Program-made: the position numbers and the translations under genes | The notes under the pieces: generated by a model | The model's input: only the letters and a program-made list of their open reading frames with translations | Told to the model about the DNA's origin: nothing | The model's database searches: none | NCBI GenBank assembly: GCA_044892525.1 | Contig: CM097888.1 | Coordinates: forward strand, 72,664,001-72,728,000 | Reading direction: 5' to 3' | DNA from: Schmidtea polychroa | Taxonomy: Eukaryota | Length of the DNA stretch: 64,000 bases | Shown here: positions 64 to 44,100 of the stretch, in pieces | Numbering within the stretch: position 1 is the stretch's first letter | Layout: each line of letters starts with the position of its first letter

Positions 64-447
64 TTAGAAATCTGTTTTCTGTAGTTCATTATTATAAAAT
101 CTACCTAATATTTTTTCATTATTTAAATCAATGATGCTATATGTTATTGGAATTGTATAATGTATTTTATTTATAATAAAAATTTCATTTGTCCATTTTG
201 CTGTGAATCCTTTTTCAAATTTATTTTTATATTTAAATATTCTTACTCGGTCGCCAATTTTAAACTTTGGTTTTTCATTTACCACTTTAACGGTTTCAGG
301 ATTTATAAGTTTTAAAGGATTCAAGGAAACATTTAAAGGTGTTGATTTTATAGAACTATGTACATCATTATTATATTCATTTACAATCTTTTGTAACAAT
401 TCATTGTTCCATTTTTGTTTTCCAATAGCAGTAAAATATTTCCACAT
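64..447 (-). pseudogene. C-terminal part of Polinton-type DDE integrase, cut off by a 1-nt frameshift
   Basis: MWKYFT...W...L..IV..YN...HSSIK.TP and FKIGDRVRI...FEKG....WT.E.F are typical Polinton integrase C-terminal motifs. Removing one T in AAT-T-ATA-ACA (~467) joins it in frame to the upstream ORF as ERLN-ITLKNK-MWKYF. Confidence 0.85.
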
Positions 448-448
448 T

Positions 449-1432
449 TTATTTTTTAATGTTATAATTTAATCTTTCAACTACGACTGCTTTTCCTTCG
501 TTTTCTGTTGAATATAATTTAATATCATTTTCATTTAAAAACTTTGTAAAAACTTTGCTGTAAAATTCTGTTCCTTTATCACACCATAAATATTTTGGAA
601 TTCTTTGATGTTGTTCAAATATGTTTTCAAATGCTTCTGTAATTGAATATCCTGTTTTGGTTTCTAAACATCTTGCAAAAGCAAATCTTGTATATAAATC
701 TATTACAGTTAAAATTATTTCATATTTTTCAGGGTCTGATGATTTGGTTGGCATAAAGACTAAATCAGCAAACCATGTTTGATCTTTTTCATGTACTTGA
801 ACTTTTAAATATTTTTTATTTTTTCTAAATTCATGGTGTAATTCGTTGGCATATTTTATTTGTGATTCTGTTGGGGTTTGTAAATTTGTAGAATCAAAGA
901 GTTGATTCTCAATGTCTGCTTGTTGAATAATCTTTTTGTTGGCAATGTCTTTTGCTGTTCTAGGAAGTCCGGCTCCAATAAAGATCTTACCTTTCATTGC
1001 TAATTTAACTAGAGCTCTTTGAATCTTTTCTTGGGTTGATGGGTTTTCTATATTATTTAAATCATGTATTAAATTAACATCTGCAAGGTGTCTATCTCTA
1101 AGGTCTTCAGAATTGTAAGCAATATCATGTTTTAAAGCTGCTTGATCAATTCTATTTATCGGTTCTTCTCCGGGCTTGGGATTATTATTTTCATCAAGTC
1201 TAATATCTAGACGTGTTCTTGGTCCAGTATAGTTGTGTTTAAATAAATGTCTTTCGCCTGAATATTTTTCAGTAGTAAAGGGTTTTAATATTGAAGATGT
1301 TGTTTTTGAAGATTGTAGGTCTCCACCAGTCGGGGAGCTCCCCAACCTTGTATGTTTTTTAGTTTTGAGATGACTTGCTTTATGATGTTTTCTAACTTGA
1401 CAATTACAAATTTCACATCTCCAATAAGACAT
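449..1432 (-). CDS. Fusion protein: C2H2 (U1/jaz-like spacing) zinc finger + parvovirus-like phospholipase A2 (PLA2X) + rve integrase core
   Basis: The N-terminus has C-x2-C-x11-H-x5-H. HNYTGP...PINRIDQAALKHDIAY...RH.AD...K.KIFIGAGL is a PLA2X domain with the HDxxY motif. ELH...TWFADL, VIDLYTR, WCDKGTEF and VVERLN form the integrase core with a D..D(33)E triad. All three are in one uninterrupted frame. Confidence 0.85.
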   Translation of the reverse strand: MSYWRCEICNCQVRKHHKASHLKTKKHTRLGSSPTGGDLQSSKTTSSILKPFTTEKYSGERHLFKHNYTGPRTRLDIRLDENNNPKPGEEPINRIDQAALKHDIAYNSEDLRDRHLADVNLIHDLNNIENPSTQEKIQRALVKLAMKGKIFIGAGLPRTAKDIANKKIIQQADIENQLFDSTNLQTPTESQIKYANELHHEFRKNKKYLKVQVHEKDQTWFADLVFMPTKSSDPEKYEIILTVIDLYTRFAFARCLETKTGYSITEAFENIFEQHQRIPKYLWCDKGTEFYSKVFTKFLNENDIKLYSTENEGKAVVVERLNYNIKK

Positions 1433-1449
1433 TTTATATAGAGATATTT

Positions 1450-2727
1450 TTAATTTTGTGCATCACCTCTTACATTTTCAATAAATGAAATCTTTCCACC
1501 ATATAATTTCATTTCTATTTTCTTTTCTTCTAATATTAATGTATATACTTTAGCTTTAAAATCAGAATCCTTTGTTATATGAAGTGTAACATCAACATTA
1601 TTTATAGCTAGGCGATCATCTTGATCTGAAACATTTATACAAAATATAGAATATAAATTTTTGAAATCTTCTAAACTTAATTGTGGTTCAACTTTAAAAT
1701 CATAACATGTTTCAATATAATTCAGATATGGGAATATGTTTTCATTATTTTCAATATTAAATTCCATTCTATTTATTGAATAATAAGAACTATTTAATTG
1801 AATTTGTATTGATTTTAAATTATCATTTCCAATCTTTTGAATAAACAAGCTGTTATTTTTTTGGAATGATAAATCTACTTCTTTGAATCCAATAAAGATG
1901 AATCTCGGTCGGTATGCTAAATTTGCAACCTTTATAGAATATGTTGAACCCTCTGTCATACTAAATTCACTACAGACTCTATTTAAATAATTTACATTTA
2001 TAGATTTGTTGGAATTTAATCTTTCAAGGAGTTTGATTTCGGAATGTGGGTTTAATGTCCATTCAGGTATATGTAATTCAAGTGTTGATAATTTTAATTT
2101 AGCTTTTATATCTACACCTCCATAGAATAATACTTTATCAACTATTACTCTATTACAAAGTAATTCTATAAAAACATTATGAAGTATACGGTTATAGTTT
2201 TGAAGGAATCCAAACAAGTGTTTTAATTCAAAATAACCTTCAAATTTTTTAGATTTATAAAGTTTAACTCTTTTATGGTAACCATTATTTATATCTAAAC
2301 CATCTTTATCTAAATCACCTTTATTAACATCGGGAATCCAACCTGTTAATTCTCCATATTCATTTTTATAATCACAACCAGTTAATATAAAATTTAACAT
2401 TGTAGAATATATTCCTGGATGTAAAACAGTTTCAATTTCAGATGATCCTAGTTTTAATCTCATGTTGGAGAATAAATTTGGAAAGAAATTATTTTCTAGG
2501 GTTATATCTTTGTTTGCTTCAATTTCTAATTCAATTTTATAATATAATTTTGCATTACAAATATCTATAGGATTTGATGTTTGAAGAGATTGAAAAACTA
2601 TATCACCTGAACGATTTAAGTTTGCAATAGATCCCGAAGTTGGTGATATTTTTAAAACATCAATTTTTTTAATTTCATGCATAAACTCTTTATTATAATC
2701 AAGATTTAATTTATTTTTATTAGCCAT
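1450..2727 (-). CDS. Polinton/adintovirus-type double-jelly-roll major capsid protein (425 aa)
   Basis: The intact ORF carries NFFPNLFSNMRLKLGSSEIE...PGIYSTM, PRFIFIGF, LKSIQIQLNSSYY and IFCINVS.Q...VDV...AKVYTLIL. These match the pattern of Polinton PY/hexon-like capsids, and the gene is adjacent to an integrase. Confidence 0.75.
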   Translation of the reverse strand: MANKNKLNLDYNKEFMHEIKKIDVLKISPTSGSIANLNRSGDIVFQSLQTSNPIDICNAKLYYKIELEIEANKDITLENNFFPNLFSNMRLKLGSSEIETVLHPGIYSTMLNFILTGCDYKNEYGELTGWIPDVNKGDLDKDGLDINNGYHKRVKLYKSKKFEGYFELKHLFGFLQNYNRILHNVFIELLCNRVIVDKVLFYGGVDIKAKLKLSTLELHIPEWTLNPHSEIKLLERLNSNKSINVNYLNRVCSEFSMTEGSTYSIKVANLAYRPRFIFIGFKEVDLSFQKNNSLFIQKIGNDNLKSIQIQLNSSYYSINRMEFNIENNENIFPYLNYIETCYDFKVEPQLSLEDFKNLYSIFCINVSDQDDRLAINNVDVTLHITKDSDFKAKVYTLILEEKKIEMKLYGGKISFIENVRGDAQN

Positions 2728-2791: not shown

Positions 2792-3019
2792 AGTAGTGGG
2801 GGTATGGCCCTCACGGACGCTGACCTTCTTCATGTTTCCCCCTTCAGTGGCTTGGGCCATAGGGTTTTGGGTTCGTGTATTTGAGGGTTTTATGGATGAA
2901 AGATGTAAAAATAAGGGGTTAAAAGATGAAAAAGTTTAGTTTTTTAGGCTGAATTTGAAGGGGCTTGACACTGGAGGACTTGGGGGGGTTGGGTCCGTGA
3001 GGGCCATACCCCCACAACT
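2792..3019. repeat. 27-bp inverted repeat pair (2792-2818 / 2993-3019) enclosing a G-rich spacer; putative element terminus
   Basis: AGTAGTGGGGGTATGGCCCTCACGGAC versus GTCCGTGAGGGCCATACCCCCACAACT: 26/27 match as reverse complement. No flanking target-site duplication was found. Confidence 0.85.
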
Positions 3020-4999: not shown

Positions 5000-7900
5000 T
5001 CAACTAGGATTTCTCTCTGGCTCAGTATTATTCTTATCTGGGATTCTATCAGTTTTGTCTCTTGAAAATTTAGATTTTATTATTGACAAATAACCCCGAA
5101 TATTTATTTCCTTGATAAATTTTGTACAATATTCACTCGAAATAGCAAACCCACCAATACCCTCGTATTGCATGCAAGACATCCCTATGACTTTACCATG
5201 CAAATTTACCAATGGTCCGCCTGAGAATCCTGGCTAGATAATTACAGACATCTCCTTAATTAGCCTATATATAATATTAAAGTACTTGTATATAAGCATC
5301 TGTTTGTATATATTTTACATTTTTGTAAGCAAAAAGGCTGCCGTAACGCCCGATTCCAGAAACAACCCCCATCGTAGCATTTATTGTGGAAAAATGGCTC
5401 CCTAGAGCAAGAGCAAACTCACCAACTTTTACTGAACTTTGATTCTCAAATTTCAAAGATTTTAGTTTTAATTTTCCAGAATTTATCTATATATATACTT
5501 GTGACAATCAAAATTATTTATTTTTTGTATTGCTAAATTTAATTTGTTGATATGATTCAAAGTATGCCAAATTTCTCCTACGACTAAATACTTTTCAAAT
5601 CTTGAAATTCTAACGCCTGGTCTTGAATAAGAATAGAAGAAATGAGTAATTATAGTAATTATTAAAATCGAATATAATTAAAAGAAAAAATATTCAGTGA
5701 CAAAATAAATAATAACAATAATAATAAATATGTTGGGTTTTTATTTTTAAAGTCGGTTCTCTATCTGACTCCTCGTTTTCTTATTCAACCAAATAAATCG
5801 AAACCCAACAAAGAATAATTTTATTCAATTTCAAATAAATTACAACTTGTCACTATTTGCACCTTTCGCTCTGGCTTTCTGAACTCCTTATGTTTCGCGG
5901 CTTATGTTTCTGAGCTCTCTTTTTATATTGTTTCTGAGAGGGCAATTATCTAGAGAACTGCAATTAATTATCTCCCGGGAATCCTAGGTAAACATTTGAG
6001 GATTTCCAGATTGTTTTTATTTGTTTATCCTAGATTGGGGCTTGAAATATTCCCTTTCTTATATAATTGCTCGAGTCTCATTGCGCATTGGGATTCCTTC
6101 AGCGCTAGGGTTTCCCATTGACTCAGATCTCCCATTGGCTCGGGCTTTCCATTACAGATTAATTAATTTTAATTGATTTGCTTTTTCGCATTCACTTTCT
6201 CTGTGAACACCTTATTAAATTTTGATTATAATTTCTGAACTCGTCTATCAATATCTCGAACAATTTTTCTTTCGGCAGTAGTTCTGAAACAGTATCCTCT
6301 GTATGTCATTATTTCTTTCTATTGTGATCTCATTCAAAATTATAAAAAACTGAACCTTTAAAACCTTTATTTTTGAAAAATTACAAAATAGACAACCTTT
6401 AAACTCTATGTATATTAACTTCGCTGATGTTTTTGATTTACACAAATTTTGTGAGGCCAAATCAACCAACTTTCCGTGATCGGATTGAACTGAAATTGGG
6501 CAAGTAGATTTGTTGTCGAGAACACTGCACACTATCAAAATTTCAGATCTATCCGATCACGGAAGGTGGGTTGATTTAAAAAATATTGATATGTCAAATC
6601 TATTGTTATTTCTTTATTTCAATATAAATTCTTATCTATTCATTAACTTCGGATTAAAGAAATAACGTAATTATATCTAAAAGATGTTATATAAGTTTAA
6701 ACCATATGTCCATATAGGTACTTAAAGTGCAAAATAGTATGAACAATTTCCTTACGGAGATTTCGAGTTGACATTCTTCAATATTTTGTATGAAATATAT
6801 TGTTCTTGTGTTATAAAAATAAAATTTTGGACTTAATACAGTGTAAAATTGGTGTTCTGTGATTAAAAATTGGAAAGTAAATGTTCTTCTTCGATTGGCT
6901 ATTAAATTATAACTACTTTTAGACGAACCGGACTTTTAGTTATTTGTGGGTAGCAGATAAATACCACTCAAGATTTGACATTTGTTACCTCAAAATTAGG
7001 TGAGTTGAATTTTCCTTTGTATCCGAAGAAATAATAATGAAAATGCAGTTCAGAGAAAGTGCCGACTTGCAAAAGAAAGGAAAAACGACAGCTTAAAAAG
7101 GCGACCAGAGTCATCGTATTGAAATTTTAGTTTTTAGTAAAATTAATAGAATGAAATAAATAGTTTTAAAAACCATGTTTTAAGGTTGGTTTTTTTAACA
7201 AACTAAATCCTAAATCATACAATTCCAAAAACTTCAAAAATAGCTTTAATTTGTTTTAAATCGTTTCTCCCATAACTTTGTAATCCACCTTGGGGTTAAT
7301 TTTAATTATATTGTCTTTTTATTTACAACTTGTCTTGCCTGTCTTTTCTTTTCAAATTCTATCTGCTTTTCCTCATCTACTATTTATGCCCTTTAGTTCA
7401 GGCTGTGTTTCCTTTTATAGTCTGCAATCTAATGGTACTACTCATTTTGACCAATTTAAATTCCATTCTCATGTACATACCCTTCATTCATCTCAAGCTC
7501 TTTTATAATCTATGACACCTGTCGAGATACATAACTTTTAAAAGACGCCATCTTTTGACTTCCCCGGTGATCCTCTTTCTTTATTTCAGACAGACTATTG
7601 AGATATGCTAATTTAATTTCGTTTTGTGTTTTATTTTTCTTTTGTCACCTAGTACGTGTTAATTAAGAATGACCTTGTCGTATTTCATTGTAAAATTTTT
7701 ATTGACTGTTATTTTTCTCTCGTTTTCGATTTCTTTTTCTCGCTTTTTGTTTCTCAGAATTCTGGAACAAGCCGTCCTTCATTTATTACATTTCTCCATG
7801 AGCATTTTATTTATTTAATAATTATTTAATTTTATTATTTAGGTATCCTCAACAAATATATGAAGATGTCAACTAAAATGATGAGCGAAGATAAATAAAT

Positions 7901-10900
7901 TAATAGTTTAATGGCTGCAATGGCTGCATTTACTGACATAACAATTGTATTCATCTTTTCATGTCTGAAATTGAGACAAATTTTGTGATTCTGGTAGACC
8001 AGGCTTGAATAATGTTAAATAACATTATTAGAGATAACATAAAATGTTAGTCTAGCAAATAAACATGTAGGTAATAATCAAAATATTGATTTTTGAATGG
8101 AATATATAAAAGGATTGAAAAAGTAATAGATAAAGCCAAAAGATAATTGCTAGCAATATATGAGAAACGTTGAGAAAGAAATCCTGTAATGTTTATTGTG
8201 GATAATTTTATCCCACTGTTGTATTCTAGTTGAGAAGTAACTCATCGTTTATGTCCAAAGGAAAAAATATTCAGAAAAATACATTGCTCCTTAAAACTAG
8301 ATTTACGAACTGAGCCAATTTAACTCATTTAAAATTCTACATATACAGGTGACCCTCCTATAACACGGTTTCTCTCTAACACGTTCAGGCTTTTTATGGT
8401 AGCGCTCCTATAACACGGTATCCGATTTCGCTCTTACACGTTCAGATTTTTTATAATTTAAAATTTAACCAATTCTGTATACATTTCAAAGAAAAAATAT
8501 AATTAAACAAAAAAACCGAATTTGCTTTATTTTTTTTGGTGCGAAATTACGACGTTCCATCTAGGGGCGTTTCTGTCCAGATAAGTAAATACATTCTATT
8601 AATGGCTAGAAAGTTCACCGTTATTGTTTACGATTACTATTTTTTTAGATTTAATCCCAATATGTCCGGTAAAAATACAAAACCATCGTTGAAGAGAAAA
8701 TTCATTTCTCTAGAACAGTGCTTTCCAACCTTTTCATGCTTATGACACACTTTTTAGACTTCCATCATTTCGCGACACAGCAAATCAGTTTTACCAGAAA
8801 ACCAGACGTCATACAACTTACGCCATATGGTAAACCGTTATACAAGAGACAATGAAACATATTTAAATAGAAATATCGAATTCCAACGATTAACTAATAA
8901 ATAGGGTAAACAAGCGTTCTTGCAGCTAAAACACGACGGACCATATATGTGTATTGTATTTCAGTCTAACAATCGTTAAAAAGTTTATAAAATTAAGGGA
9001 CTCTGTGGCTTTTCATTATGTTCACGCGACACACCGATGCAGCGCTGCCGACACACTAAAGTTTCGCGACACACCGGTTGGAAAGCTCTGCTCTAGAAGA
9101 TAAGATACAAATTTTGGATCGTAATATGAAAGGGGAGAAACCAGCACACATCGCAAAAAACATTAAATTTAAATGAAGCAACAATCCGAACCATTAAAAA
9201 CAATGAGAACAAAATTAGGAGTGCTGTGACTGCAAGATCTTCTATATCTACTATATCTTCTATATCTATATCTCTCAGCATTTGGATTGACGATTGTTGC
9301 CAAAAAAGGATTCCACTGAATGGGCACATTATTAGACAAAAATCTCTTAGGATTTATAAGCACCTTAAGGAAGATGGAAAGTCTTCCATCAGTTCGGACT
9401 TTGTGCCGAGCAAAGGATGGTTTGACAAGTTTAAAAAACGATTTTAAATTCACAGCATTTAAATACAAGGTGAATCCGCATCAGCTGACTACGAAGTTGC
9501 AAGGACGTATCCAGAAAAAAATTTTAAAAATTATAGATGAGAAAGGATACACAGCCGACCAAGTTTTTAATACTGATGAAACTGGGCTACGATGGGAAAA
9601 AATGCCTAATAGAAAAAACGAGAAAAAACAGCACGAGGGTTTAAGGTATCTAAAGAACACATAACTCTACTTTTGGGCAACCATTACTCGTTCATAAATC
9701 ATTAAATCCCCGTGCCCTTAAAAGTGTAAACAAAAACAATTTGCCGGTACATTGAACAGCAAATTCAAAAGCTTGGAATACAGGAGATTTGTTACAAAAT
9801 GGTTTTTAGAGTTCTTTGTGCCAGAAGTAGAAAATTATTTGAAGAAGAATTTGGATTTCAAGATTCTTTTACTAATTGACAATACTCCAGGACATCCACA
9901 AGATTTGAGTCATCCCAGCACTCAAATAGAGTTTCTACCACCAAACACTACGTCACTGATCCAGCCATTGGATCAAGGAATCATTTATACCTTCAAATGT
10001 TATTACATTAGAAGATCATTACAATGGATTTTAGATATAAGTGAATCGAAATCGATTGGCGTCATAGTACCTTGGAAGTAATTCTCAATCAAAAACTGCA
10101 TTGATTTGATATCCTTCTCGCTGAAGGCGTTAATACCGTCTACATTAAATAGAAGCTGGAAAAAAATCTGGCTTTCGTTAGTTGAAATAGGAAACAGTAC
10201 AGAATTGTCAGAAAATGAAATTGATAACATATTAGAAGTTGCAGCATTGATCGGAGGTAAAGGTTTTGAAGATATGACTACACATGATGTTCAAGATTTA
10301 TTTATGAAGAAATTGGTGAAAAGTATTTACTGAAAATGCTTCAGAAGATGTGCATCAAGTCGATTCCGAGGATCACATTAGTGATAAATATTGTGCAATT
10401 AATAATTTAAATCTGCAAAATTACGGGAAGGTCTAAATTTCGCGGAAAATCTAGAATCGTTTTTCGTGAATGCGGATCCATCTGCTGAAAGAAGCCGTAA
10501 GTTCAAAAGAGAACTGCAAAATTGTTTGGCCCCATATCAAGAAATGTTTAACGAGCTATTAAGGAATTGCAAACAATCCAAAATTATAGACTTTTTAAAG
10601 AGGACAGGATTCGAAACGAATGAAAAGGATTCAGAAAAGAGAACAATTGATCCAAACAATGACAAAACTTCGTAAAAGAACATTGAATACGAAAATGATG
10701 AGAAGAATACAGAACAGAGTACAGATGATCCGTATGATTCATTAAGAAGTTCTGAAATATAATTAAATATAAAAATTAAATACTTACGTGAAGTTTGTTT
10801 TGTTTCTAAATCTTACATTTCTAATAAAATTGAAGTTATTTCTATGTACTTTAAAAAATATGTGTATATATTTTAAATTTTGGAACCTAACTTGGAACCT

Positions 10901-11651
10901 TTTTATATTGGCCCTGGGTTCCATATAACATGGTTTCACACAACACGCCGTTGTCCTGGAACCTATCTACCGTGTTATAGGAGAGTCACCTGTATATAAT
11001 ACTGATTTATTATTTTTTGAAAACATATGTTGGTTTTAGATACGTTGAAATAAAGATAAATATTAATTACTTTCCTCTACCGACTCCCTCATTTCGCATA
11101 TCGAATGAGGGATATATATTTTTATGGCTAATTTTTACCCGTAAATCTAGTGTTAAAATATACTAATTGAGAAATATGAAGGAATATTAATATGAAAATA
11201 TTTACTTTTATTAGAGCTAAATCCATTTGATCATCCATCATAATAACATGAGCTTTAAATATTTTGCCACTGTGAACCTTAACTAAGGTATTATGCCTAT
11301 CCAAAATTACGTGAGCACATGTCAAAATATATCCGGATTCATCAAATACGAAACCAGAACCTCCAGCCATTTCTGTGTCAGCTCTGAATGAATTATTAAT
11401 CCAAAATCATCGTGAACATCAAAATTTTACTTGAAAACTTTAACAACACTTGGTTCAACGATTTCTACAACATCAGTCAACCGACTCAACGGCTTAAATA
11501 AATTGAATTCATTTGTCAAAGCATTTGCAAATTTGATTCTTTTTAATTCCGGAACTTGAAATTTCTTATTAGCAAATATTTTGTTACAATAATAAAAAGC
11601 TGTTCCACCCATTAAAATTGGTAATATAATTTTTTGGTATTTTCTGAACAT
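5000..11651 (-). CDS. HTRA2: HtrA2/Omi-like serine protease, 4 exons, about 277 aa, no PDZ domain found
   Basis: Exons 11651-11431, 11383-11206, 5486-5286 and 5233-5000 have GT-AG introns (47, 5719, 52 bp) and compatible phases. The catalytic triad is TCAHV / DLALIK / GFSGGP, with IQTDA and VGEFALALGS also present. The N-terminus is basic plus hydrophobic (MFRKYQKIILPILMGGTAFYY), like a mitochondrial targeting/TM segment. Confidence 0.85.
5731..6260. repeat. Diverged partial copy of the LTR-like family also at 25500 and 55228
   Basis: Shares TGTTGGGTT...AAGTCGGT...TGACTCCTCG, CCATTGGCTCGGGCTTTCCATTA and the ATTAATTAATT block with the other copies. The right boundary is approximate. Confidence 0.55.
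6459..6577. repeat. 119-bp fold-back with 39-bp arms (4 mismatches) in HtrA2 intron 2
   Basis: AAATCAACCAACTTTCCGTGATCGGATTGAACTGAAATT ... AATTTCAGATCTATCCGATCACGGAAGGTGGGTTGATTT. Confidence 0.75.
8346..10992 (+). mobile_element. Tigger/pogo DNA transposon with decayed transposase
   Basis: 24-bp TIRs CAGGTGAC(C/T)CTCCTATAACACGGT, flanked by TA. Transposase remnants run from ATG 8662: KRKFISLE, KGWFDKFKKR, DQVFNTDETGL, LLLIDNTPGHP, LPPNTTSLIQPLDQGII. They contain several stops and frameshifts. Confidence 0.95.
8716..9090. mobile_element. Non-autonomous hAT (Charlie/Buster-like) element inserted into the Tigger transposase
   Basis: 15-bp TIRs CAG(T/A)GCTTTCCAACC and a perfect 8-bp TSD CTCTAGAA. 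It splits the transposase at ...KFISLE|DKIQILDR... Confidence 0.92.
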
Positions 11652-11869
11652 AATTAAATAATGAAATCTAATACAGTTAAACAAATCAACCAAAATAAAT
11701 TCATTAAAAAATTTCGCCAATTTAAATGTAAATTGTCTGAAATTAATTTAATTGTTGAATATTTGAACATTTGAACATAATTAGTTTTGTGAGTAAATAT
11801 TTTATAAAATGATTAAATATTATTGCGTGAATTTGAAGAATTTATTTAAGAATTAAAGAAATAGTTGAA

Positions 11870-12005
11870 NNNNNNNNNNNNNNNNNNNNNNNNNNNNNNN
11901 NNNNNNNNNNNNNNNNNNNNNNNNNNNNNNNNNNNNNNNNNNNNNNNNNNNNNNNNNNNNNNNNNNNNNNNNNNNNNNNNNNNNNNNNNNNNNNNNNNNN
12001 NNNNN
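11870..12005. other. Assembly gap (136 N)
   Basis: Run of N. Confidence 1.
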
Positions 12006-14453: not shown

Positions 14454-16694
14454 GAATCCCGGGTGCCACAGCATGCCTATCCCGGCACATATTTTGTTCC
14501 ACTTCGAGCACTGCCCCTACTTGAGGAGTAAAGATAATATTTTTTTTGCTATTTCATGTGTATCTTTTCGGCGATTCTTATTATTTTTATGCTTTCGAAA
14601 TGTGTTTCGTGTGCAACTCCTTGCGGTTAATAATTTTTGTTTTAATTATTTTATTCTTGTTTTCTTTCTACTATTGTTTCTTGCTTTTTCTAGGTTATGT
14701 GGATCATCGCAGTTACCCTATTACCTGTCAGATTAAAGTGAAAGAAAATAATTGAAAGAAGAAACTTGCTTTTCAGCCCAACAGAGAAAAGGTTGGCATC
14801 AATTGTAATATGATATAAAAGTGTTCAGAAAACAAGGCTTAGAAAAATTTAAAACATACTCTTGAATATATTATATTGAAGAGTAGTGTAATTCATAATC
14901 ACATTCAAGGTGTGACAAAAATAGAAGTAAATAAAACGAGCTGTAACAACTTTTTGGGCTCAAAACCAAGTGACTTAGGAGATTTACCGGATTAGAGTAA
15001 TAACGATAAAAATAAGTAACCAAATCAAATAATCACGAAAACATGTGATGATTTGACATAACATGAAAACGCAAGTTAATAAAATAAAACCGCAAGAAAT
15101 TAAACAAGTAATAAATTAAACTAAGTAGAATAAAGAAATCACCAGAAAGACACAAATTAGTCAAAGAAAAATAAAGATGGTGACCAGTGAAGGCACATGG
15201 CTAAAATACGGGCGATATGGAGAATAATCAGGAAAAGGAAATATAAAAATTAATCGAAAAATAAAATAAAATGTGGTATACCCTCACCTGATTAGTCGAG
15301 TTCAGTATATAAAACTCCTATATTGACACGATTATTCTATCGCACGCCAAGATTTGAATATCAGTTAGGAGAAAATCTTGTCTCAGAATTAAGAAATAAC
15401 ATAGCAGAGAAATGAGTAACTGCGGCGGATAAACGATGCTTCAAAATCTGTTTACTAGAGATGTATCACCTAATTCATTAAAAGAATTTTCTACGTTCTG
15501 CAAAATGTTCAATGCCTGGAGCTACACTAAATTACCGAATGAGTAATTATCAAAACTAGCTACGATAAATAGGACGAAATTTGTCAGTCATCGAAATGTA
15601 GATTTAGGCTTGTGGATATAGTAGGACACTCATTTTTGACGGCCTTTTGATCTGTCGGTGTTATGCTTGACCTTAGTGAGATCAACAAAAGTTTACCAGT
15701 ATTGTGAAAATAATCTTTACTTAACTTTGCGAAAAGGATTTTTTCGATTAATTATAAAGCCTATAAATCAAAAATTTAATCTATAAACTATATTAAAAAT
15801 AGTAACTGAATAATACTCAATTAAATTTAATAATAATAATATTCATGGAGCTTAAATAAACACAAATGATATGGATTTTATAGCCTTCAGCTTGGCATCA
15901 AAACTTTGGCATCTTCCATACTTTAAAAGTTGTTTTTAGATCCTACTGGAAAAATTAAAACAATCCCATATTATGTGTAAACAAAAATACGATGATTTGC
16001 AAAATTTAATAAATATTTTGTAATACTGAAAACTAATAAACTCAACCAGTGGCGTACGCAGGGGGGGGGGGGGGGTTACTGGGGGTTTAACCCCCCCCAT
16101 GATTCCAACAACAATATAAAAAACTATAATTAATAAATATATAAACTTAAAACAATTTAAGAAATATTCCGAATGCCGATATATATACAGGCCCGACAAG
16201 AGGGGGGGTTTGATGGGGAAAATACCCGGGGCCCCGGAGAAAAAATCTATCTTGATTTAAATCACTAGATTTTTTTATGAAAAAATCATGATTTCAATTT
16301 GTAGGAACTATGTTCCTCCTTTTGTAGTGCGTGTGTGTGGGGTACGTCTGGAGAGTGTCCGTTGCCAAGATTGCTTTCGGAACCCCCGTTGCGAAAAAGT
16401 CTACACGGCACAAACGCATCTTGCAGTAATGGTAAGCACATGTGGCAATCTTTTGTTTGTCAAGAGTCAAGTGCTTGCTATCACTAGTTTTTGACATTTT
16501 GAGCCTGTTTCATTATTTACAAACTCTATTATTATTTAACTAAAAGAAAAATTACAAACATTAATAGTGTAGTAAGTGTAGTTGTTTGATCAATGTGAAA
16601 ATCTCCAGGAAGAAGCGGATAAAGTAATCGTGTTTGTGAACTAAGCCGAAATTGAATAAGAAATTAACCTAAGCGTTTCTTTACCGGTGCTGGA

Positions 16695-17345
16695 GTGCTG
16701 AAGTCTGATTTTCGATTATTAGTAATTAGCAGTCAATGGGAGACCGCCATCGACTCCGATATTCGCGACGTGGATGAATTAGAAATGACACCAAGTGACG
16801 AATTCAGAACAAATGTTTTCAATGTTTTCTTAGATTGTATTATTGGAAATATTGCAAGAAGATTTAATGCGGCTAAAGAAATTGATTCGTTATTTAATGT
16901 ATTATGGTTATTTCATAACCTTAATGATGAAGAAATACAAAAGAAGTCCGAAAAATTACAAAAGGTATATGAAAATAATATTGACCATAATCTTGGTGAA
17001 GAAATACTCCATTTAAAATCAATTTATGATGCCAATATACAAAACAAATCTCTCTCGCCCATTGAGTTTCTAAACATCATTAAAAAAATGAAACTGGATG
17101 TATTGTTTCCCAACATAATAATAGCAATAAGATTATTTTGTACGATCCCTGTAACCGTTGCTGAAGCAGAACGATCCTTTAGTGTTTTAAAAAGGATAAA
17201 AGATGTTTTGAGATCCACAATGTCACAACACCGATTGAATGATTTAGGAATGTTGTCGATTGAATCTGAAATGGCTAAGAAAATTGATTTTCAAGACGTA
17301 ATTAATTTGTTTGCTAGGCGCAAGGTTCGGAAAGCAACATTCTAA
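16695..17345 (+). pseudogene. C-terminal fragment of hAT transposase (ZMYM1-like, hATC dimerisation domain)
   Basis: LFPNIIIAIRLFCTIPVTVAEAERSFSVLKRIK..LRSTMSQ.RL..L.MLSIE. The N-terminal and catalytic parts are absent. Confidence 0.9.
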
Positions 17346-17531: not shown

Positions 17532-17688
17532 NNNNNNNNNNNNNNNNNNNNNNNNNNNNNNNNNNNNNNNNNNNNNNNNNNNNNNNNNNNNNNNNNNNNN
17601 NNNNNNNNNNNNNNNNNNNNNNNNNNNNNNNNNNNNNNNNNNNNNNNNNNNNNNNNNNNNNNNNNNNNNNNNNNNNNNNNNNNNNNNN
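17532..17688. other. Assembly gap (157 N)
   Basis: Run of N. Confidence 1.
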
Positions 17689-27926: not shown

Positions 27927-30229
27927 CACCAGAGTCTCTTTTTACACGGTCTTACTTTAACACGGTTTTTTACACGATTTATTTATATTTACACGGTTTT
28001 TTTACACGATTTATTTTAATTCACACGGTTTTCAAAAAATTAATTTTAACCAATTGCATCGTAAGTATGTACCAACACTGTAAATTTCAATCATTAAATA
28101 AAGATTTGTATGTATTTATTGAAAATATTTAATCGTAGTATGTAAGTTGTTAATACATTTATGCATTTTTTATTTTGATAGATGTTTTAATTATTTTCTT
28201 ATTATTAATTTGAAGTTCATTCGGTTCAATTAATTCTAGCTGATATCATAAATATATAAATTTAAGAATTTCAACTGAATTTTGATATATTTGAATAAAA
28301 AAAACTAGTTTCGTTAGGATTTACCTGCCCTACGATGATGCCTGTTAAGAAAAAAAGAAAATGTATTTCATTAGAAACCAAAATTAAAATTTTAAACCGT
28401 ATTGAAAATGGAGAGGGTTCTACGAGCCTTGGTAAAAGTTTTGATGTGAATGAAGCTAGGATACGCACTATAAAGAGAAATGAAAGTATTATCCGAAGAT
28501 CTGTGATGGTCGGAACTAAACTATCTTCCAAGTACTCCTCATATATAAGATGTAGCGTTATGGAAAAAACAGAAAAGGCATTGGCTGTATAGATAGAAGA
28601 CAACAACCAAAAACGAGTTCCATTGGATGGAAATACCATCAATAGAAAGCATTACATATATATGACAAGATTGAACATTTGCAATCATCTGATTCAACGC
28701 AGGCCAAGAAAACTGTTTTTTCTGCAAGTACAGGATGGCTAAGAGCATTTCTAAACAGAAACTCGCTTCATAACGTGCAAATTAAGGGCGAAATTGGCTC
28801 AGCCAACGAGAAATCTGCTAAAGAATTCCCCGAAAAGTTAGCCAGAATAATTGAAGAAGGTGGATACACTCCAGACCAAGTTTTTAATGCAGATGAAACT
28901 GGTCTTTTTTTGGAAGAAAATGCCAAAAAGAACATATGTGGCTAGATCTGAAAAATTCGCCAGTGGATTTAAAGCAGCTAAAGAACGTATTACTTTATTA
29001 TTTTGCAGCAATGCTTCAGGGGATCGGCAGTTAAAACCTCTATTTATTAATAAAACTTTGAAACCACGTGCAATGAAAAATAAAAACGTAAAAACCTTGC
29101 CTGTTCATTGGATGGCCAATAACAAAGCATGGGTAACATCATTAGTTTTTACAGAATGGTTCAATACGTGTTTTATTCCAGAAGTTAAAGTGTATATGGA
29201 AGAAAAAGGTTTGGAATTCAAAATTCTTTTGCTTATAGATAATGCTCCCGGACATCCACATTTAAAACACCCAAATGTAAAAATTGTATTTTTGCCACCT
29301 AATACAACGTCTTTATTACAACCACAAGATCAAGGTATAATTGCCACGTTTAAAACCTATTATTTAAAACAATCATTTCAATATATTTTGGATAAACTAG
29401 AAAATGACAGAGCAATAACAGTTATTGATGCCTGGAAGAAGTTTTCAATTATGGATTGTGTAAAATTTGTAAATATTGCAGTACATGAATTAAAACCATC
29501 AACTTTAAATGCGTGTTGGAAAGCGGTTTGGCCAGATTGTGTCAAAGATAAAAATTGTGTGCATCCAATTTCAACCGAATATTCCAACATTATAAATTTA
29601 TCAATGGCAGTTGGTGGAATAAGGTTTGAAGATTTGGCTTTTGAAGATATTGAAGAAGTCATACTAGATCCAGTTATTAGCGATGAGTCATTAATAGAAG
29701 TTGCTCTAGAGGGTACTGATTGCCGAGAAAAAAGTGGAATTGTGACGTCTGCTCATCTCAGTGCCGGTTTAATTATAAAAGGATTGCAATTGGCAGAAAA
29801 GTTGGAAAATATTTTTATTGAAAACGAAAAAATTCTCGTGACTCGTGCACTTCATTGACTTCACAGCTTCTGTATGAAAATACAGAACCTAATATTTCGA
29901 GCGAGGAATCTGAATGTGAAATCAATTTTAAACCAGTCTCAAGAAAGCGCATACATATTTCTTCAGACACTGACAGTGATTAAAAGATTATTTTTTGTTA
30001 AATTGTTAATTATAAATTTATTTTTTCGTAATGTCTATACATATATACATTGAATATGCTTATTTTTCTAAACTATTGTTAATTAATAAAAAAAATTTCT
30101 TAATTCTGCTGTTATTGGATCTAATCTACGAAAATGCTTTTTTTTTCTTTGTTAGTAATTTTTTTACATTATTTTTAACACGATTTTTTTACACGTTACC
30201 TATCCACCGTGTAAAAAAAGACTTAAGTG
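27927..30229 (+). mobile_element. Near full-length Tigger/pogo transposon with pseudogenised transposase (28335-29858)
   Basis: 23-bp imperfect TIRs (..AGTCT.TTTTTACACGG) flanked by TA, with subterminal ACACGGTTT repeats. Protein motifs are KKRKCISLETKI, FSASTGWL, DQVFNADETGLF, LLLIDNAPGHP and LPPNTTSLLQP.DQGII. There is one in-frame stop and several frameshifts. Confidence 0.93.
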
Positions 30230-36533: not shown

Positions 36534-37849
36534 AGGAGGCCAATCCAGCACAGTCCAACGTTGCTTACTGATCCGTTCTTTTACTATTGTGCTGCGATGA
36601 CATGGTGCACCATCATCCCCTATAACCCAATCTTTATTATTACCAAACGCCTCTTTAACGGAACTGCATACTTCATTGTAAAGAGCCTTTAAATACCACT
36701 GGGAGTTGCATCTTTCGTCATTGCACAAGAACCGAACTTTTCCAGGCCCACGAGCAGTGAAGAGTTTAAACAAAATAATGATCTCATTGATGTGAAATAA
36801 ATGAAACAATATTAAATATATAATATTGGAATTATATTAACATTTTCTCCTTGAGTACAATAACAACAAACATTTAGATTTTTACATACAGAAAACAATA
36901 GGTGTTCACTACTTTTTCGGGTGACTGTATATATAAATCATATATTTTTTTAAAACTATTTTCGGTTTTTATAAAGTTTCAATTGAATATAACAATTTCA
37001 GCTTATTCAATTTGTTCAATTTATCAGCGCAGCATTCCAAGGTTTGGGTTTGGATTTGATGCTAGAAGAGCATCTGAAATTGACTCACATTACCATAGAA
37101 GATTTAGAGTACGCTTTGTTATTTCCCCGAAGCAGTCGCTTGTTATGTGCACTCGTACCTTTAATTACTACAGCGTCCAAAAATCGTCAATCAATAATTA
37201 AACATGGATTGTATGATTACGATTCATGGAATAAAGAACTTTCTGAAAGAATTAGATTTTTATATAAATTATGGAACGACAGGCAGTTTAGTAACCAACC
37301 CGAGGTTTTCGTTAGACGTTACAGTGTAGATCCTATTCTATTCAAAGTCTTAGGCAATCGCAAACCAATCACTGATAGGAAACAATTCCATGAAATATCT
37401 GTTTTCCAAAGATGTCATGTTTTACTTGCCATGTGCTGCATGTCCCTAGTAAAATCATTGATATTGTTATCATTACCTAAGTTCATCAAACAATTTAGAG
37501 ACTGCAAGATACAATTCATTTTGGAATGGATAAATCAATTGAATGGAATGATCATCGGGTTGTTTTATTAGCAGAAATCGGTGGTTATGAATATGTAAAC
37601 TTTGGAGGATTAGGAGAATTTGCAAGTTATTTCATTTTTCGTATTGAAACCCGTAAAATTGATGATGAATTGGCCCAATATTCTGTACAAGACTCAGTGA
37701 AAATTGATAAAAGAAAGAAAAAAGAAAAACCGATCGATAAATACCGTATGCCTACGTGGTACATAGACGAAATGAAAAAATCTAAAACCAAAAAAGCGAA
37801 AGCGACTTCAAATAATAAAAGAAATAAATCAATGGAAAATGGTTAGCAA

Positions 37850-38109: not shown

Positions 38110-41100
38110 GTTATTTATTATTTATTCATTCAAAAGCTTGAAGACTATGAATCAGTAAATATATCGATGTTTTTGATATATTTACTGATTCAGTCTTCAA
38201 GCTTTTGAATAAGTACAACGGAAAAGAAATCAGTGGTGAAATTTGAAAAAAAATGTTCTTATAATATGAATCAATAAAGATATAAAAAACATCGATATCT
38301 TTACTGGTTCACAGTCAAATTTTTAATAAATACAATGTCAATTGAAAAGAAATCAGTGATAAAAATTGAAAAAAAGTTCTTATATTATTATTATTGAATA
38401 AATAGTTAAACGTACATGACAATGATTTAATTATAAGATAACGCCAATCAAACATTCTTTTCATGATATATTTCGACAGTTTTCTTGTCATCATCAGGTG
38501 GGATTATAATAACTATATAAATTAAAGATTTTAAACAAATTTATTAAATTATTAATTTTTTATAAAAATTTATTAATTAATTAATTTAATCAATACATAC
38601 AATATACAAAAAATTATTTAAAAACATTTAAAACACAAGTATTCAATGCATTCTGCACATTAATTTTTGGATTCAATGACTTTATCGATAACGCCTCACA
38701 ATATACACAATATTCCCTATAATTATCGAATTTTTTTAATAAAATTTTAGAATCAGACATACCTATTTTAGTCTTACTGCCCTTATTGTGCTCACTAATA
38801 TGGGTCAAAGCCTTCGGTCTACAATGTTCTCGAGCTCGAATGCAGTGATGACGGGAAGCCTCTCCAATGTATGTGGCATTACACCCATTACATGTAAACT
38901 GATAAACGCGATCGGAACACAATTCGACTGGAGTACTTGTGTACTTTCCATGAAGTTGACACTATCCTATAGTTTAAATTCCCTAACTGCTTTCTTATCT
39001 TCACTTTATCATCCTTAAAACCTTCTGAGTACGGCAATACTAACACAAATTTAGGCTCATCATCCTTGCTCACACTATTTAATTTATTTAACTCATCAGA
39101 CTCACACACCTCAACAACTTCACACCCAGATTTTCTCAAACATTGTAGACCGAAGGCTTTGACCCATATTGGTGAGCACAATAAGGGCTGTAAGAGTAAA
39201 ATAGGTATGTCTGATTTAAAATTCTATTAAAAACATTCGATAATTATTGGGAACGTGTATATTGTGAAGCGTTATTGATAAAGTCATTGAATCCAAAAAT
39301 CAATGTACAGAATCCAGTGAATACTTGTGTTTTAAATGTTTTGTGAAATTAATTAATTAATAAAATTTTTTAAGAAATAATATATAATTTTAATTAATTT
39401 TTAAAAATGAAATATTTTTATTAAATAATATAAAAAAAATTTTTTTTAAATAAATAAATAAAAAAAATCACTAAATTATTGGGTTCGGTAGTGCTCTTAT
39501 GAATAATTTCTTTATTATTTCTTCATTTTTAGAAGGATCTTCTAGAAATTTTTCTTAATTGCTCTTGATGCTTTGAATTAGTTTCTGTGGCTTTATTTGG
39601 CTTAAACTGGTATTTTAAAATATAACAATCAAACTGATTGTATCAGTATCATATTAATTTCCATATGACTCTTTGCTTGTTAATATGGATTCCATTTGAT
39701 AGTGTAGAAACCTGCTAGAAACTTTTCGAATAGTAAGGCATTTTTTAGTTGTTTGTCAAGTGAGTTTCGACATATTCTTCCTCGTTCGTGCTATATTCTT
39801 ATGATACCATTTAGTTATGAATTCAAAAATAACAAATTACACAATGCTAACTATTTTCCAGCTCTACTTTACTGTTTCGAATTATAAAATATAATTTCCT
39901 TGAATTCCAATTTAATTTATAACTATATAATTACGGGATACTACACCTTCATACGATTTGATAAACTAGGTATCAGGTTCTTCTCAAGTGACAACTGTTT
40001 AAATTTCGTTAAAATCAATAAATTGGGCTTTTTATTTAGAAATTAATTATTTTCATCAAAAATCATTGAAATAAAATCCATTGAATTTAACTGAACACTG
40101 AAATAATCAAATTCAATATCATGATCATAATTCCTTCTGCATCATTTAAATCAAAACCAAAATCTCTATGTTTAAAACTGTTTTAAAAAGTTATTGGACT
40201 AATATAATTTATTTCTTGATTCAACAATATATACGCGTGTTAAAGAGAGTAACTATACTAGATCAAAAGTTGAAGGCGTTGTTCAAATATTCTTGCTATA
40301 ATTCATGCTAAATTATTGACGACATAATCTGCCATTATTCACAGGAAATCAACATTTCTCGGGAATCTTGGCATAGCACTTTTCCTAATTATCAGAGATT
40401 TTAACTTATCTCCAACTGCATTCACAGCTAATATCAAATTTATCCGTTCTTTCCTTGTGTATCTGTCATTTAATGCATCAAATCTAGTGTGTTACTTTTC
40501 CAGACATTTTTGACTCCCGGGATTCTGGATTTCACTGTTATTAATTTTTACAATAAAAAATTTGGGGTTTTGTTTGTTTAAAATGAATAATATATTTAAA
40601 TTCCATTCAATCACATTAAATCACTTAAGTTTGATTGAAATCATAACAAATCAAACTATAAAAAAATTTAATTAATTTAAATTTGATTCATTTAAGGAAA
40701 TAAATCAAAAATTATAGTACCTGTTATGATTTGACATGATGATTTAACAAAATTCAAATATTTATTTTATCACAATTAATGTTTTTCTAATCACAACAAT
40801 TCTCCCCTCCTAATTTGATTGCCATGCTGGTTTTAGACGATCGACTGATACATTCTCCCCATTCTATTTTGGCTGCTTTTCTAATACACGAAACGGACCT
40901 GTATATGGAGCTTCTAATGATTTTCTTACATCTTTTCTTATATACACGAATTCACAGTCATTATAGATTCTGGGATCGTCATACCATCTTGCAATGGTCT
41001 TTCGATTATTCTGAAGCTCTCGATAATTTCTTTTAATTGATGTGGAGAGGCTTCTTTTGGGGAATTAAACATAATTCCTGGTACAGCAGGATTACATCCA

Positions 41101-44100
41101 AATGCTTTATGTGCCGTAGAGTAACCTGTTGAATCGGGACTGTTCCTTTTCGTTAGTTTTATCCATTGAAGCCATAACTTGAGATTTTAGTGTCCGATGG
41201 AAGGTTTGTTATGGCGCTTTGATATGACGATATACTTTTGATTTTGACTGACACCACATCTGAACATCCTTTGTCATCTTGTGACATGTATATGAGCTCA
41301 ACAGCAATCTTTTGGTCCTTCGTATTCCTGGATGAGCGACATTGTGAATCATCTGAAAAACTTTCATCTGAGACTCGGAGGTAATATTAATTTCCCATAA
41401 TTCATCTTTATTATGCTTCAACTCTTCTTTCTGCTTTTGTAGTATCTCTTCATTTGGCCAGCGGTAAACGTTTTCTGAAACTAATTGAACGTCTGTTCTA
41501 GAGAGTGCATCAGCAACTTGGTTTTTATTTCCAGGGCAGTAAACTATCTTGCATTGAAATTCTTGAATATATTGGAGATGTCTCCATTGTTTGTTGCTTG
41601 GGTCTTTACAAATTCAGTGGCTTCGAGAAAATGATGGAAGTGCTTGTATATTACAAGTAATTCTCTGTCGTATGTACTGTATCTTGATTCTGTCTTCCTT
41701 AACAGTTTGCTAAAAATGATATTGATCGCTCGTTTTGCAACAATACCTGATCCTGAGGCATCTGTTCTCAAGGTAGTAGGTTCTGATTCATGAAATTGTT
41801 CTTTACAAAGTCGATGGAGCATTTCGTAATCCAAATGGCATAAAAAAGATTCGTACATACCAAACGGAGTAGTTATTGCTGTCTTTGGAATGTCATTTTC
41901 GTTCATTGAAATTTGTAGATACGCCTTTTTAAGATCGATAGTACAGAAGTATTTTTTTATTTCTCACAATCTGCAATATATCCTCGATTCTTGGAATTGG
42001 ATATCTATCAGGGATGGTTGCTGTATTCAAATTTCTTTAATCACCGCAAAATCTGTATTTTCCATTTTGATTTACAACGACTAGTGGAGAAGAAATTGGC
42101 GAGTTTGATAATCGACATTTGCCAGTGTCTACCATTTTATTAAATCAATCTTTGGCAGCTTTTAATTTGTCGCCATATAGTCGTCTTGCTGGAAATGATC
42201 TGACGATATCGTTTAAAACAATGTCATGTTGTGTTGTGATCTTGGCGCTACATTCTGATTTGTTGAAGTAACTCAACAGATTATTATCAACTATCGAATT
42301 AATTGAAACTCTTTTCAACTTGTAGTCGATTAAAGCGTGATGTGTTGCTAGAAAATCTGCACCAAGAATAGGCTGTGATACATCCCATACATGGAAAAGC
42401 CAACTAATTGTTTTGTCATCGATTCGTAAATCAATCTTCCTATTCCCATAACATTTTATTGGAGTACTATTAGGAGCTGTAAGTCGAGATGAGCACGGAA
42501 TTTCTGGCTTGAAAATTTTTCGTGGCAAACATGAAACAGATGCTTCTGTATCCACTTTTGAATACACACTTTGACGGTGGTTAATTTCGAGGCGTTTTTC
42601 CATTTCCCAGCATATATAAAGCACATCGGGATCCATCTTTCAGCTTGTCACATTTCCTGGCGTTTTTTTCATATTTACTGTGATAGAACCAAAGGCTTTT
42701 TGATTTCTGGGGAGTTTCCTTTAAATAGAATATTTCTTCTTATAATTCCGCGATTTCATCCAATTAATGCATGTATTTTAAAATTGTCATTCGAATATGG
42801 TGTTTCATTTTCCATGCTTGCCATCATCCCGTCCGCTATTGCTGCCAATTCTTCCATAGACTTTTCTTGAAAACTTGTAATTATGAGCTTAATATCCTTT
42901 GGGGGAGCTTTATAAACATGTGTCGCAATAACCGTTGGTCTGTTTTTTGGGCTTATGTGAACGCGTACTAATCCTCTGAAAAAGTTGTTTGGGCTTTAAA
43001 TCGTATAGATTAAATTTTCCAAGAGCGTACTCAATACATTTTGTCAGTGACTTGGCAAAATTCTTCACAATAATTCCTTTGATGCATTGGTAAGATTCAT
43101 TAACTGTCTCAGGAATATTGACGACGACATCTTCTGGAAGATATGCCATAACGTGATGAAATTTCGTCGAATCATTTGATATTTGAGACAATTTGAATTG
43201 GGATTCTAGCAGTCTGAACCATAGAGCCTGATTATTTCTGTAGAATGGACATGGTTTGATTGAAACATGCAAAATAGCATCTTCTGATTGTTTTTGAATT
43301 GTCATGGCGTGGTCGCCAATGTTATGATTTGACATGATGATTAAACAAAATTCAAATATTTATTTTATCACAATTCTTAGTTTTTAAACAAAATTAAATT
43401 AATATTTTGTTAAAAGGGTTTTGTGTGATTAATGCATTTCTAATCACAACAGTACCTATTGACTATTGAGTACCTATTGTGTTTGTGTTCTACTTTAGTT
43501 TATGTAATATTATACAGTTAATATTAAATATACTTAAATTTGTATTATAATACAATAATATTGTGCGAAAGTGGTAAATTTAACATGGATTCTTGCTAGA
43601 TGTGAATAAATTTTATCACAAATGAAATCCCAGGAGTGACATACTAATCAAATCTTAGAAATTTGACTGATGATTTATTACACATACTGAAAAGCTTAAA
43701 GCGATGTATGAATGAGGTAGCAACGCTGCAGATGGTCATTACCATATAAAGTTGCAAATTTGTTTCTGAAAAGGCTATAAAGAAACTAAAATGTAAAGTT
43801 TTTATAGTTTAAAAAACAAAAAAACTATTTTTATATTGTATTTCATTTCTTATGAAAAACATATTCCTTATATTTATTTATACATATGCAAATCATTTTA
43901 TTCATTCAAAATGTTCAGCACCCAAGAGTTCTTCAAAATAAATTTTGCTTGTTTGCTTAAAATTTTTAGCTATGTTGCTGAGATTACATTTAATTAGATT
44001 TGAAAGGTACTTCGATTGGCTGGGGTACTAGAAGTAAACGATTGACAGAAAATGAATCAGTTTCAAACATTAGTTGTGATGCTGTGAAATTGGAAAGTAA

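Follow-up and report, generated by a model that had tools for sequence, protein, structure and literature searches.

A Polinton lineage with a widespread phospholipase A2-integrase fusion that may serve as a virion precursor

Results

Near the left edge of the window (the whole 64-kb stretch of Schmidtea polychroa DNA analyzed here), the minus strand carries a stop-free open reading frame of 327 amino acids (449..1432) that runs through a zinc finger, a phospholipase A2 (PLA2) and an integrase, is cut short where the gene is broken, and is 88% identical to its relative P0004. Pfam reports Phospholip_A2_4 at residues 62-143 of this frame (E 6.2e-9) and rve at residues 214-307 (E 3.9e-11), both above the curated cut-offs, which bears out a preliminary description of the locus that had placed a finger, a PLA2 and a D-D(33)-E integrase core in one frame. 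The C2H2-type finger, C-x2-C-x11-H-x5-H at residues 6-27 (1352..1417, minus strand, like all features of this frame), was recognized from the sequence and from the structural model, in which it forms two strands and a helix at a pLDDT of about 90; at E ≤ 1 it was absent from the Pfam output. Only 16 proteins, all close to the branch of the window (15 relatives and the window ORF itself), have this finger pattern.

The parvovirus-type PLA2 domain (residues 56-151; 980..1267), identified by Pfam, has its catalytic His, Asp, Tyr and Asp all in place, and its model gives a weak to middling fold match to rice PLA2 (2wg7; Z 6.6, rmsd 4.0, 94 aligned). A short glycine motif stands on either side of it, each a candidate protease site: GG at residues 36-37 (1322..1327), preceding the domain in a low-confidence loop of the model, and G-x-G at residues 153-155 (968..976), read from the sequence past the last PLA2 helix. 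The rve integrase (455..853), supported by Pfam and by fold, comprises an N-terminal helix and a D-D(33)-E catalytic core whose acidic triad is residues 223, 285 and 319, with 33 residues between the last two; its model superimposes on foamy virus integrase (4bac) with Z 15.3 and rmsd 1.8 over 113 aligned residues. Modelled from 76 sequences, the fusion as a whole has a pLDDT of 83 and a pTM of 0.42, a low value partly attributable to the truncated query; the single domains are well modelled and their packing is not fixed. In retroviral integrases an N-terminal HHCC zinc domain adjoins the core. The window protein has the DDE catalytic core of those enzymes, and its arrangement is a different one, with a CCHH finger and with the PLA2 standing between finger and core.

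No pX-like part follows the PLA2: the integrase starts about 40 residues on, without a pX-like hydrophobic stretch before it. PLA2X is defined, in the available text of Starrett et al. (PMC8502044), as a PLA2 plus a pX-like domain and is drawn apart from the integrase. Because the window protein has the parvovirus-type PLA2 domain of that definition and lacks its C-terminal pX-like domain, the name PLA2X, under which it had been described, is wrong for it.

A break in the gene at about 450-470, just past the integrase catalytic Glu, accounts for the early end of the 327-aa frame; the PLA2-integrase junction is intact. The remainder of the integrase lies in another frame (64..468, minus strand), corresponds to residues 327-463 of P0004 and stops without a chromodomain, with AATAAA directly after the stop at 58-63. 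P0004, an unbroken relative of 463 aa fused through the same junction, is 88% identical to both window pieces. A chromodomain profile found no match anywhere in the window. The departure from the usual Ca-loop of the PLA2, noted in the preliminary description, held as to the residue, which occurs in none of 121 fused relatives and is therefore particular to the window copy, and less so as to the position, which is itself variable and takes 11 residue types. The window copy is a decayed Polinton, and a whole integrase cannot be made from it.

A 17-bp spacer (1433..1449, minus strand) separates the start codon of the fusion from the stop of a 425-aa open frame that encodes the major capsid protein, or hexon (1450..2727, minus strand). 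Previously called capsid-like, this protein matches Pfam DJR-like_dom (PF21738, E 9e-24), and its model, built from 28 sequences (pLDDT 88, pTM 0.88), is a double jelly roll for which Foldseek returns the capsid of Sputnik (3j26; E 7.5e-14, TM 0.65) and the mavirus major capsid protein (E 1.1e-13), with a resemblance to the double jelly-roll capsids of NCLDV as well. We found 33 relatives, the best of them 92% identical. The capsid profile matches hexon-like ORFs of the Polinton contigs L001, L017 and L004 (E 2e-14 to 1e-5), and tblastn with Polinton-contig ORFs returns a hexon match to the window at E 3.8e-5; comparisons with phage proteins and, by sequence, with the PDB gave no match. A cleavage motif at the capsid C-terminus finds no support, as a motif of the GG / G-x-G type occurs there in just 7 of 27 relatives, unlike mavirus. 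One capsid relative (P0143) and one relative of the fusion (P0026) both lie on contigs of 6,660 bases, which is a hint only.

A 228-bp unit (2792..3019, unstranded), located 65 bp upstream of the capsid start, has 27-bp inverted arms (2792-2818 and 2993-3019; 96%, E 7.6e-6) and a folding z of -6.05. The arms open with the Maverick end motif AGTAGT, with one mismatch in the right arm; (AGT)2//(ACT)2 is given as the commonest Maverick end in vertebrates in the available text of PMC8097293. No second copy of the unit is present within the 64-kb window, and no 6-bp target duplication is seen at its flanks, where three of six bases agree. The unit probably either terminates a (rearranged) element or is a miniature derived from one. 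Between it and the capsid start, a perfect 7-bp inverted repeat with an 8-base loop (2746-2767) is a possible promoter element. The closest published relatives have an ORF-bearing region upstream of the hexon, at the place where the window has the 65 bp and the 228-bp unit.

Searches of the 64-kb window with 48 ORFs from Polinton contigs and with an adenain profile found no further Polinton gene, be it a protein-primed PolB, a packaging ATPase, a penton or an adenain-type protease, so the element continues past the left edge. The same side is indicated by the nearest, Dugesia-labelled relatives, in whose available annotation the ATPase, penton and adenain come after the integrase, that is, left of the window here. 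Rfam gave no match on the window. To the right of the element, a host-like gene on the minus strand at about 5000-11750 has exons that encode a trypsin-2 / HtrA-like protease (Pfam E 1.2e-9 at 11131-11406) and, by eye, pogo-type transposon remains within an intron (9130-10675). Beyond it are a hAT dimerisation domain (16668-17345), a DDE_1 (pogo/Tigger-type) transposase (28851-29858), a KIAA2026 helical-domain exon (36993-37571) and, by eye, remains resembling a GIY-YIG retroelement (38614-39223) and a Ty3/gypsy element (41209-43359). Assembly gaps occupy 11870-12005 and 17532-17688.

Searching with the whole protein yielded 204 relatives; among the best 120, PLA2 and integrase are found in one chain in 99, PLA2 only in 10 and integrase only in 11. 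Because a whole-protein query favours fusions, a second search was made with the integrase part of P0004 alone, and among the best 120 of its 614 matches 68 are fused to PLA2, 11 to adenain and 41 to neither. Judged by reading their N-termini, 19 of these 41 are plausible stand-alone integrases, which start at the same point, 6-19 residues ahead of the first helix, and 22 are fragments. Fused proteins number 129 in all, and PLA2 and adenain are the partners recognized, with no other, among the 197 matches examined.

On the integrase tree, the window's clade comprises 72 rows (65 fused, six fragments and the window; support 0.99); once the 22 fragments had been removed and the tree thinned to 80 rows, the clade was fused throughout (39/39, SH-aLRT 100). 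An ending without a chromodomain is seen in 56 of its 57 complete members. The suggestion that the locus marks a distinct lineage is thus upheld, both by this uniformly fused, dereplicated clade and by the absence of the usual chromodomain. The PLA2 label changes six times across the tree and the adenain label three times; fusion and splitting were therefore not single events, or else several losses of an old fusion took place. The PLA2 catalytic His, Asp, Tyr and Asp are retained in 118-119 of 121 fused proteins and the integrase D, D and E in 75, 75 and 74 of 75 relatives, and the linker between the two domains measures 3-51 residues among relatives.

On the PLA2 tree, which is built on a short alignment and has modest support, the stand-alone PLA2 proteins P0070, P0086, P0104, P0111 and P0121 nest among finger-bearing fusions, and the PLA2 module therefore seems to move as a cassette. 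Four fusions of 561-641 aa (P0310, P0366, P0368 and P0371), two of them from the coral Oculina patagonica, have extra segments in front of the PLA2, where GG / G-x-G motifs occur several times; they may represent a longer core polyprotein or may be gene-model artefacts. The best 50 matches in BFVD include no viral model spanning both PLA2 and integrase, and ESM Atlas clusters named PLA2/integrase (184, 111 and 72 members) score 0.82-0.85 and are leads only. A scan of genome contigs returned 20 loci (L001-L020), all distant Polinton integrases in GTDB bacterial bins, 11 of them in a single Ignavibacteria bin, which amounts to eukaryotic-virus contamination; at 19 of the 20 no PLA2 lies beside the integrase, and L002 has one in another frame.

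The fusion is not new: it is labelled in deposited genomes, and we found no text that analyzes it. In the available part of the supplement to a 2024 preprint (Buck et al., PMC11071296), the label 'PLA2-Integrase' is attached to a gene in at least two full adintovirus genomes, Adinto15303 (BK066759; 15,249 bp, from sediment) and Adinto6405 (BK066529; 13,891 bp, from an acoel worm dataset). The preliminary description had treated the fusion as unrecorded and had named a fusion already common among described Polintons as a ground against itself; these two labels go part of the way there. The same supplement lists two unsubmitted sequences, uAdinto15034 and uAdinto11140, labelled 'dugesia flatworm endogenized', with the gene order hexon, finger-PLA2-integrase (labelled just 'Integrase'), packaging ATPase, pX-type ORF, penton and adenain, and with PolB elsewhere. 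As listed there, each of the four genomes has an adenain and a separate pX-type ORF (the pX likeness being judged by eye), so that PLA2X is divided in them, with its PLA2 half attached to the integrase. The available annotation of Adinto13074, AdiHACZ01167797 and AdintoBK012049 has PLA2 and integrase side by side as separate ORFs. The main text of PMC11071296, in its available portion, does not use 'PLA2', and searches of the literature outside subscription papers and Repbase reports turned up no account of the fusion or of its being cut.

By eye, uAdinto15034 and uAdinto11140 are the closest named relatives in that supplement, in keeping with a probable planarian-type host for the AT-rich window. 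They share with the window the order of hexon and finger-PLA2-integrase, a near-identical PLA2 start (32 of 36 residues, hand count), GG before and G-x-G after the PLA2, the lack of a chromodomain and, again by eye, a similar capsid; they differ in a finger that ends in Cys rather than His and in having several ORFs upstream of the hexon. Adinto6405 and Adinto15303, as far as their entries are available, likewise combine an in-frame PLA2-integrase with glycine motifs and an integrase that ends without a chromodomain (by eye), and besides the pX-type ORF and adenain they list hexon, penton, ATPase and PolB; unlike the window they have no N-terminal finger, follow another gene order and are complete.

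Judged by its sequence, the locus is a member of a Polinton lineage in which the PLA2-integrase fusion is widespread. It has the rve-family integrase and the double jelly-roll capsid of the Polintons/Mavericks (Polintoviricetes), in agreement with the Polinton/adintovirus origin first proposed for it. Among the adintovirus features set out in the available part of PMC11071296, the hexon is recognizable by sequence here, the C-terminal chromodomain on the integrase is absent (the gene ends at 64), and the definition also includes a PolB that bears an OTU-like domain at its N-terminus. Because the chromodomain is absent and PolB falls outside the window, we file the element as Polinton-type and not as a canonical adintovirus. 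The Alpha adintoviruses or group 2 Polintons with PLA2X, as presented in the available text of PMC8502044, resemble it in a PLA2 that ends in G-x-G, an rve integrase with the same N-terminal helix and a double jelly-roll capsid, and depart from it in that their PLA2 continues into pX, while the integrase has a gene to itself and a chromodomain at its C-terminus. The mavirus virophage (PMC6048507, available text) shares the rve integrase, a clan CE protease acting at GG|X and GX|G, and the capsid fold, whereas its integrase and hydrolase are separate genes, its host is a protist and it needs a giant virus.

The glycine motifs recur across the family. Counted over sequences that are related and not independent, of 98 fused relatives, 86 have GG or G-x-G within eight residues past the last PLA2 helix (background 4.3%) and 12 lack it at the junction, and of the 55 with enough upstream sequence, 41 have it ahead of the PLA2 (background 2.3%). 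After identity thinning, the junction motif is present in 42/46 sequences at 70%, 18/19 at 60% and 8/8 at 50%. A second Gly follows at +1 or +2 for 99 of 115 junction glycines, versus 27 of 1136 glycines of the integrase part. According to the available text of Born et al. (PMC6048507), cleavage by the mavirus protease takes place at GG|X and GX|G, and the adenovirus protease acts alike; motifs of these two forms, which are expected of a precursor processed by a clan CE protease, are what stands at the domain borders of the fusion. The residue four before the putative cut is mostly Lys, versus the Met, Ile or Leu of adenovirus sites. The motif is short, and its first Gly could merely cap the last PLA2 helix. 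It also closes the PLA2 in 8/8 PLA2-only matches and, read by eye in the available sequences, divides PLA2 from the remainder in published PLA2X proteins; since those unfused proteins have it too, the motif may be inherited baggage. Comparison with parvovirus PLA2 gave weak matches only, which end short of the motif position.

A parallel arrangement is seen in the 18 adenain-integrase fusions (including P0102, P0105, P0109, P0110, P0115, P0118-P0120 and P0122), in which the protease comes first and shows protease-like His and Cys motifs, and the join bears a glycine motif. The motif lies within 32 residues ahead of the integrase in 18/18, against a background of 23%. The term 'adenain-integrase' has no occurrence in the searched text of the PMC11071296 supplement.

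Discussion

In retroviruses, the integrase enters the particle at the end of a structural precursor, Gag-Pol, from which the viral protease frees it. We propose, at a probability of roughly 65%, that the PLA2-integrase fusion is a virion precursor of this style, which would carry the integrase into the particle and then be cut apart; given the glycine motifs, a linker of 3-51 residues and a domain packing that is not fixed, a precursor is the simplest reading. The PLA2 part, as a particle component, would bring the integrase into the assembling capsid, and cutting of the fusion at its glycine motifs by the adenain of the same genome would release three products: a small peptide with the finger, the PLA2 (about 13 kDa in P0004) and the integrase (about 37 kDa in P0004). 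By analogy with parvovirus VP1 (PMC8502044, available text), the freed PLA2 would help to breach the endosome, and the freed integrase would stay with the genome and integrate it on arrival. Packaging of the fusion protein is plausible because the integrase of mavirus is a virion protein, found in the virion together with a cleaved hydrolase (PMC6048507, available text). The available texts of PMC8097293 and 10.64898/2026.06.19.733378 state that no Maverick-Polinton virion has been seen so far. The likeness to Gag-Pol is conditional on the precursor reading, and the window system is no member of that class, being a DNA virus with a cysteine protease, no reverse transcriptase and no HHCC domain.

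The preliminary description had instead envisaged a single protein that couples membrane penetration to integration. In such an uncut bifunctional protein, the PLA2 would stay joined and tether a membrane-opening enzyme to the genome-integrase complex, as might befit an in-frame fusion maintained across a deep clade, relatives without a junction motif (12 of 98) and linkers as short as three residues. We consider this unlikely: glycine motifs flank the PLA2 on both sides, linker length ranges up to 51 residues, the model (pTM 0.42) holds the domains in no fixed packing, fusion of the integrase to adenain, a protein with no membrane role, occurs just as readily, and the fused part begins where plausible stand-alone integrases also start, all of which points to a precursor that is cut. 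Another account appeals to economy only, with adjacent genes merged via stop loss, their ratio fixed, and an integrase that works in the cell to copy the element within the genome, unrelated to packaging. The three genomes in whose available annotation PLA2 and integrase are adjacent yet separate agree with it, as do the six changes of the PLA2 label, which make fusion and splitting look easy; that both partners seen are virion proteins, with no other among 197 matches, and that the integrase of mavirus is packaged (PMC6048507, available text) render it improbable.

The remaining two accounts concern the element or the copy. A minimal two-gene satellite of about 3 kb, made of capsid and PLA2-integrase and borrowing polymerase, ATPase and protease from a helper, would explain why there are just 65 bp from the capsid start to a Polinton-type end motif, why 48 query ORFs and the adenain profile reveal no other Polinton gene in the window, and why contigs with capsid relatives reach at most 9,190 bases. 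We rejected it as very improbable: the closest named relatives are, in their available annotation, complete elements that encode PolB, ATPase, penton and adenain (13,891 bp in Adinto6405 and 15,249 bp in Adinto15303), and an ATPase placed after the integrase, as in those relatives, would fall left of the window. That the fusion is an accident of this copy, as the preliminary description had allowed, or of its assembly draws on the evident decay (the break at about 450-470 and the unique Ca-loop residue) and is refuted to the point of negligible probability by P0004, 88% identical and fused via the same junction, by the 99 of the best 120 relatives that carry both domains, and by the 129 fused proteins in all.

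The precursor reading extends beyond the window's lineage in a proposal whose odds we judge to be even, namely that animal Polintons repeatedly attach the integrase to a virion protein, PLA2 or adenain, behind a protease site, as a form of Gag-Pol-like loading. More doubtful is the idea that some split-frame lineages join PLA2 and integrase by a programmed -1 frameshift at A-AAA-AAC, a heptamer that is the slippery site of several retroviruses. In L002, a contaminant contig of 584 bp, the PLA2 frame stops just past the glycine motif and the integrase is in the -1 frame; the two overlap at 150-204, with an in-frame A-AAA-AAC at 183-189, and the integrase has no start codon ahead of its first Asp. 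The overlapping translations in the available entry of AdintoBK012049 imply the same heptamer (worked out by hand), and the integrase there has its own start codon. An RNA stem behind the L002 heptamer does not rise above shuffles (z -0.83), heptamers of this sort are no rarity in AT-rich DNA (four in 330 bases), and an indel in the A run of a decayed L002 would look the same as a programmed frameshift. The frameshift lead is inapplicable to the window's own copy.

Deposited genomes already carry a label for the fusion, and the copy here is broken and has many counterparts; the observations are therefore of value for the pattern across the family and for the mechanism, not for the locus. They bear on how the integrase reaches the incoming genome, to which the conserved PLA2-integrase fusions and the parallel protease-integrase ones suggest an answer. 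If that answer is true, Gag-Pol-like fusions would constitute sequence-level evidence for Polintons spreading as particles that integrate on entry.
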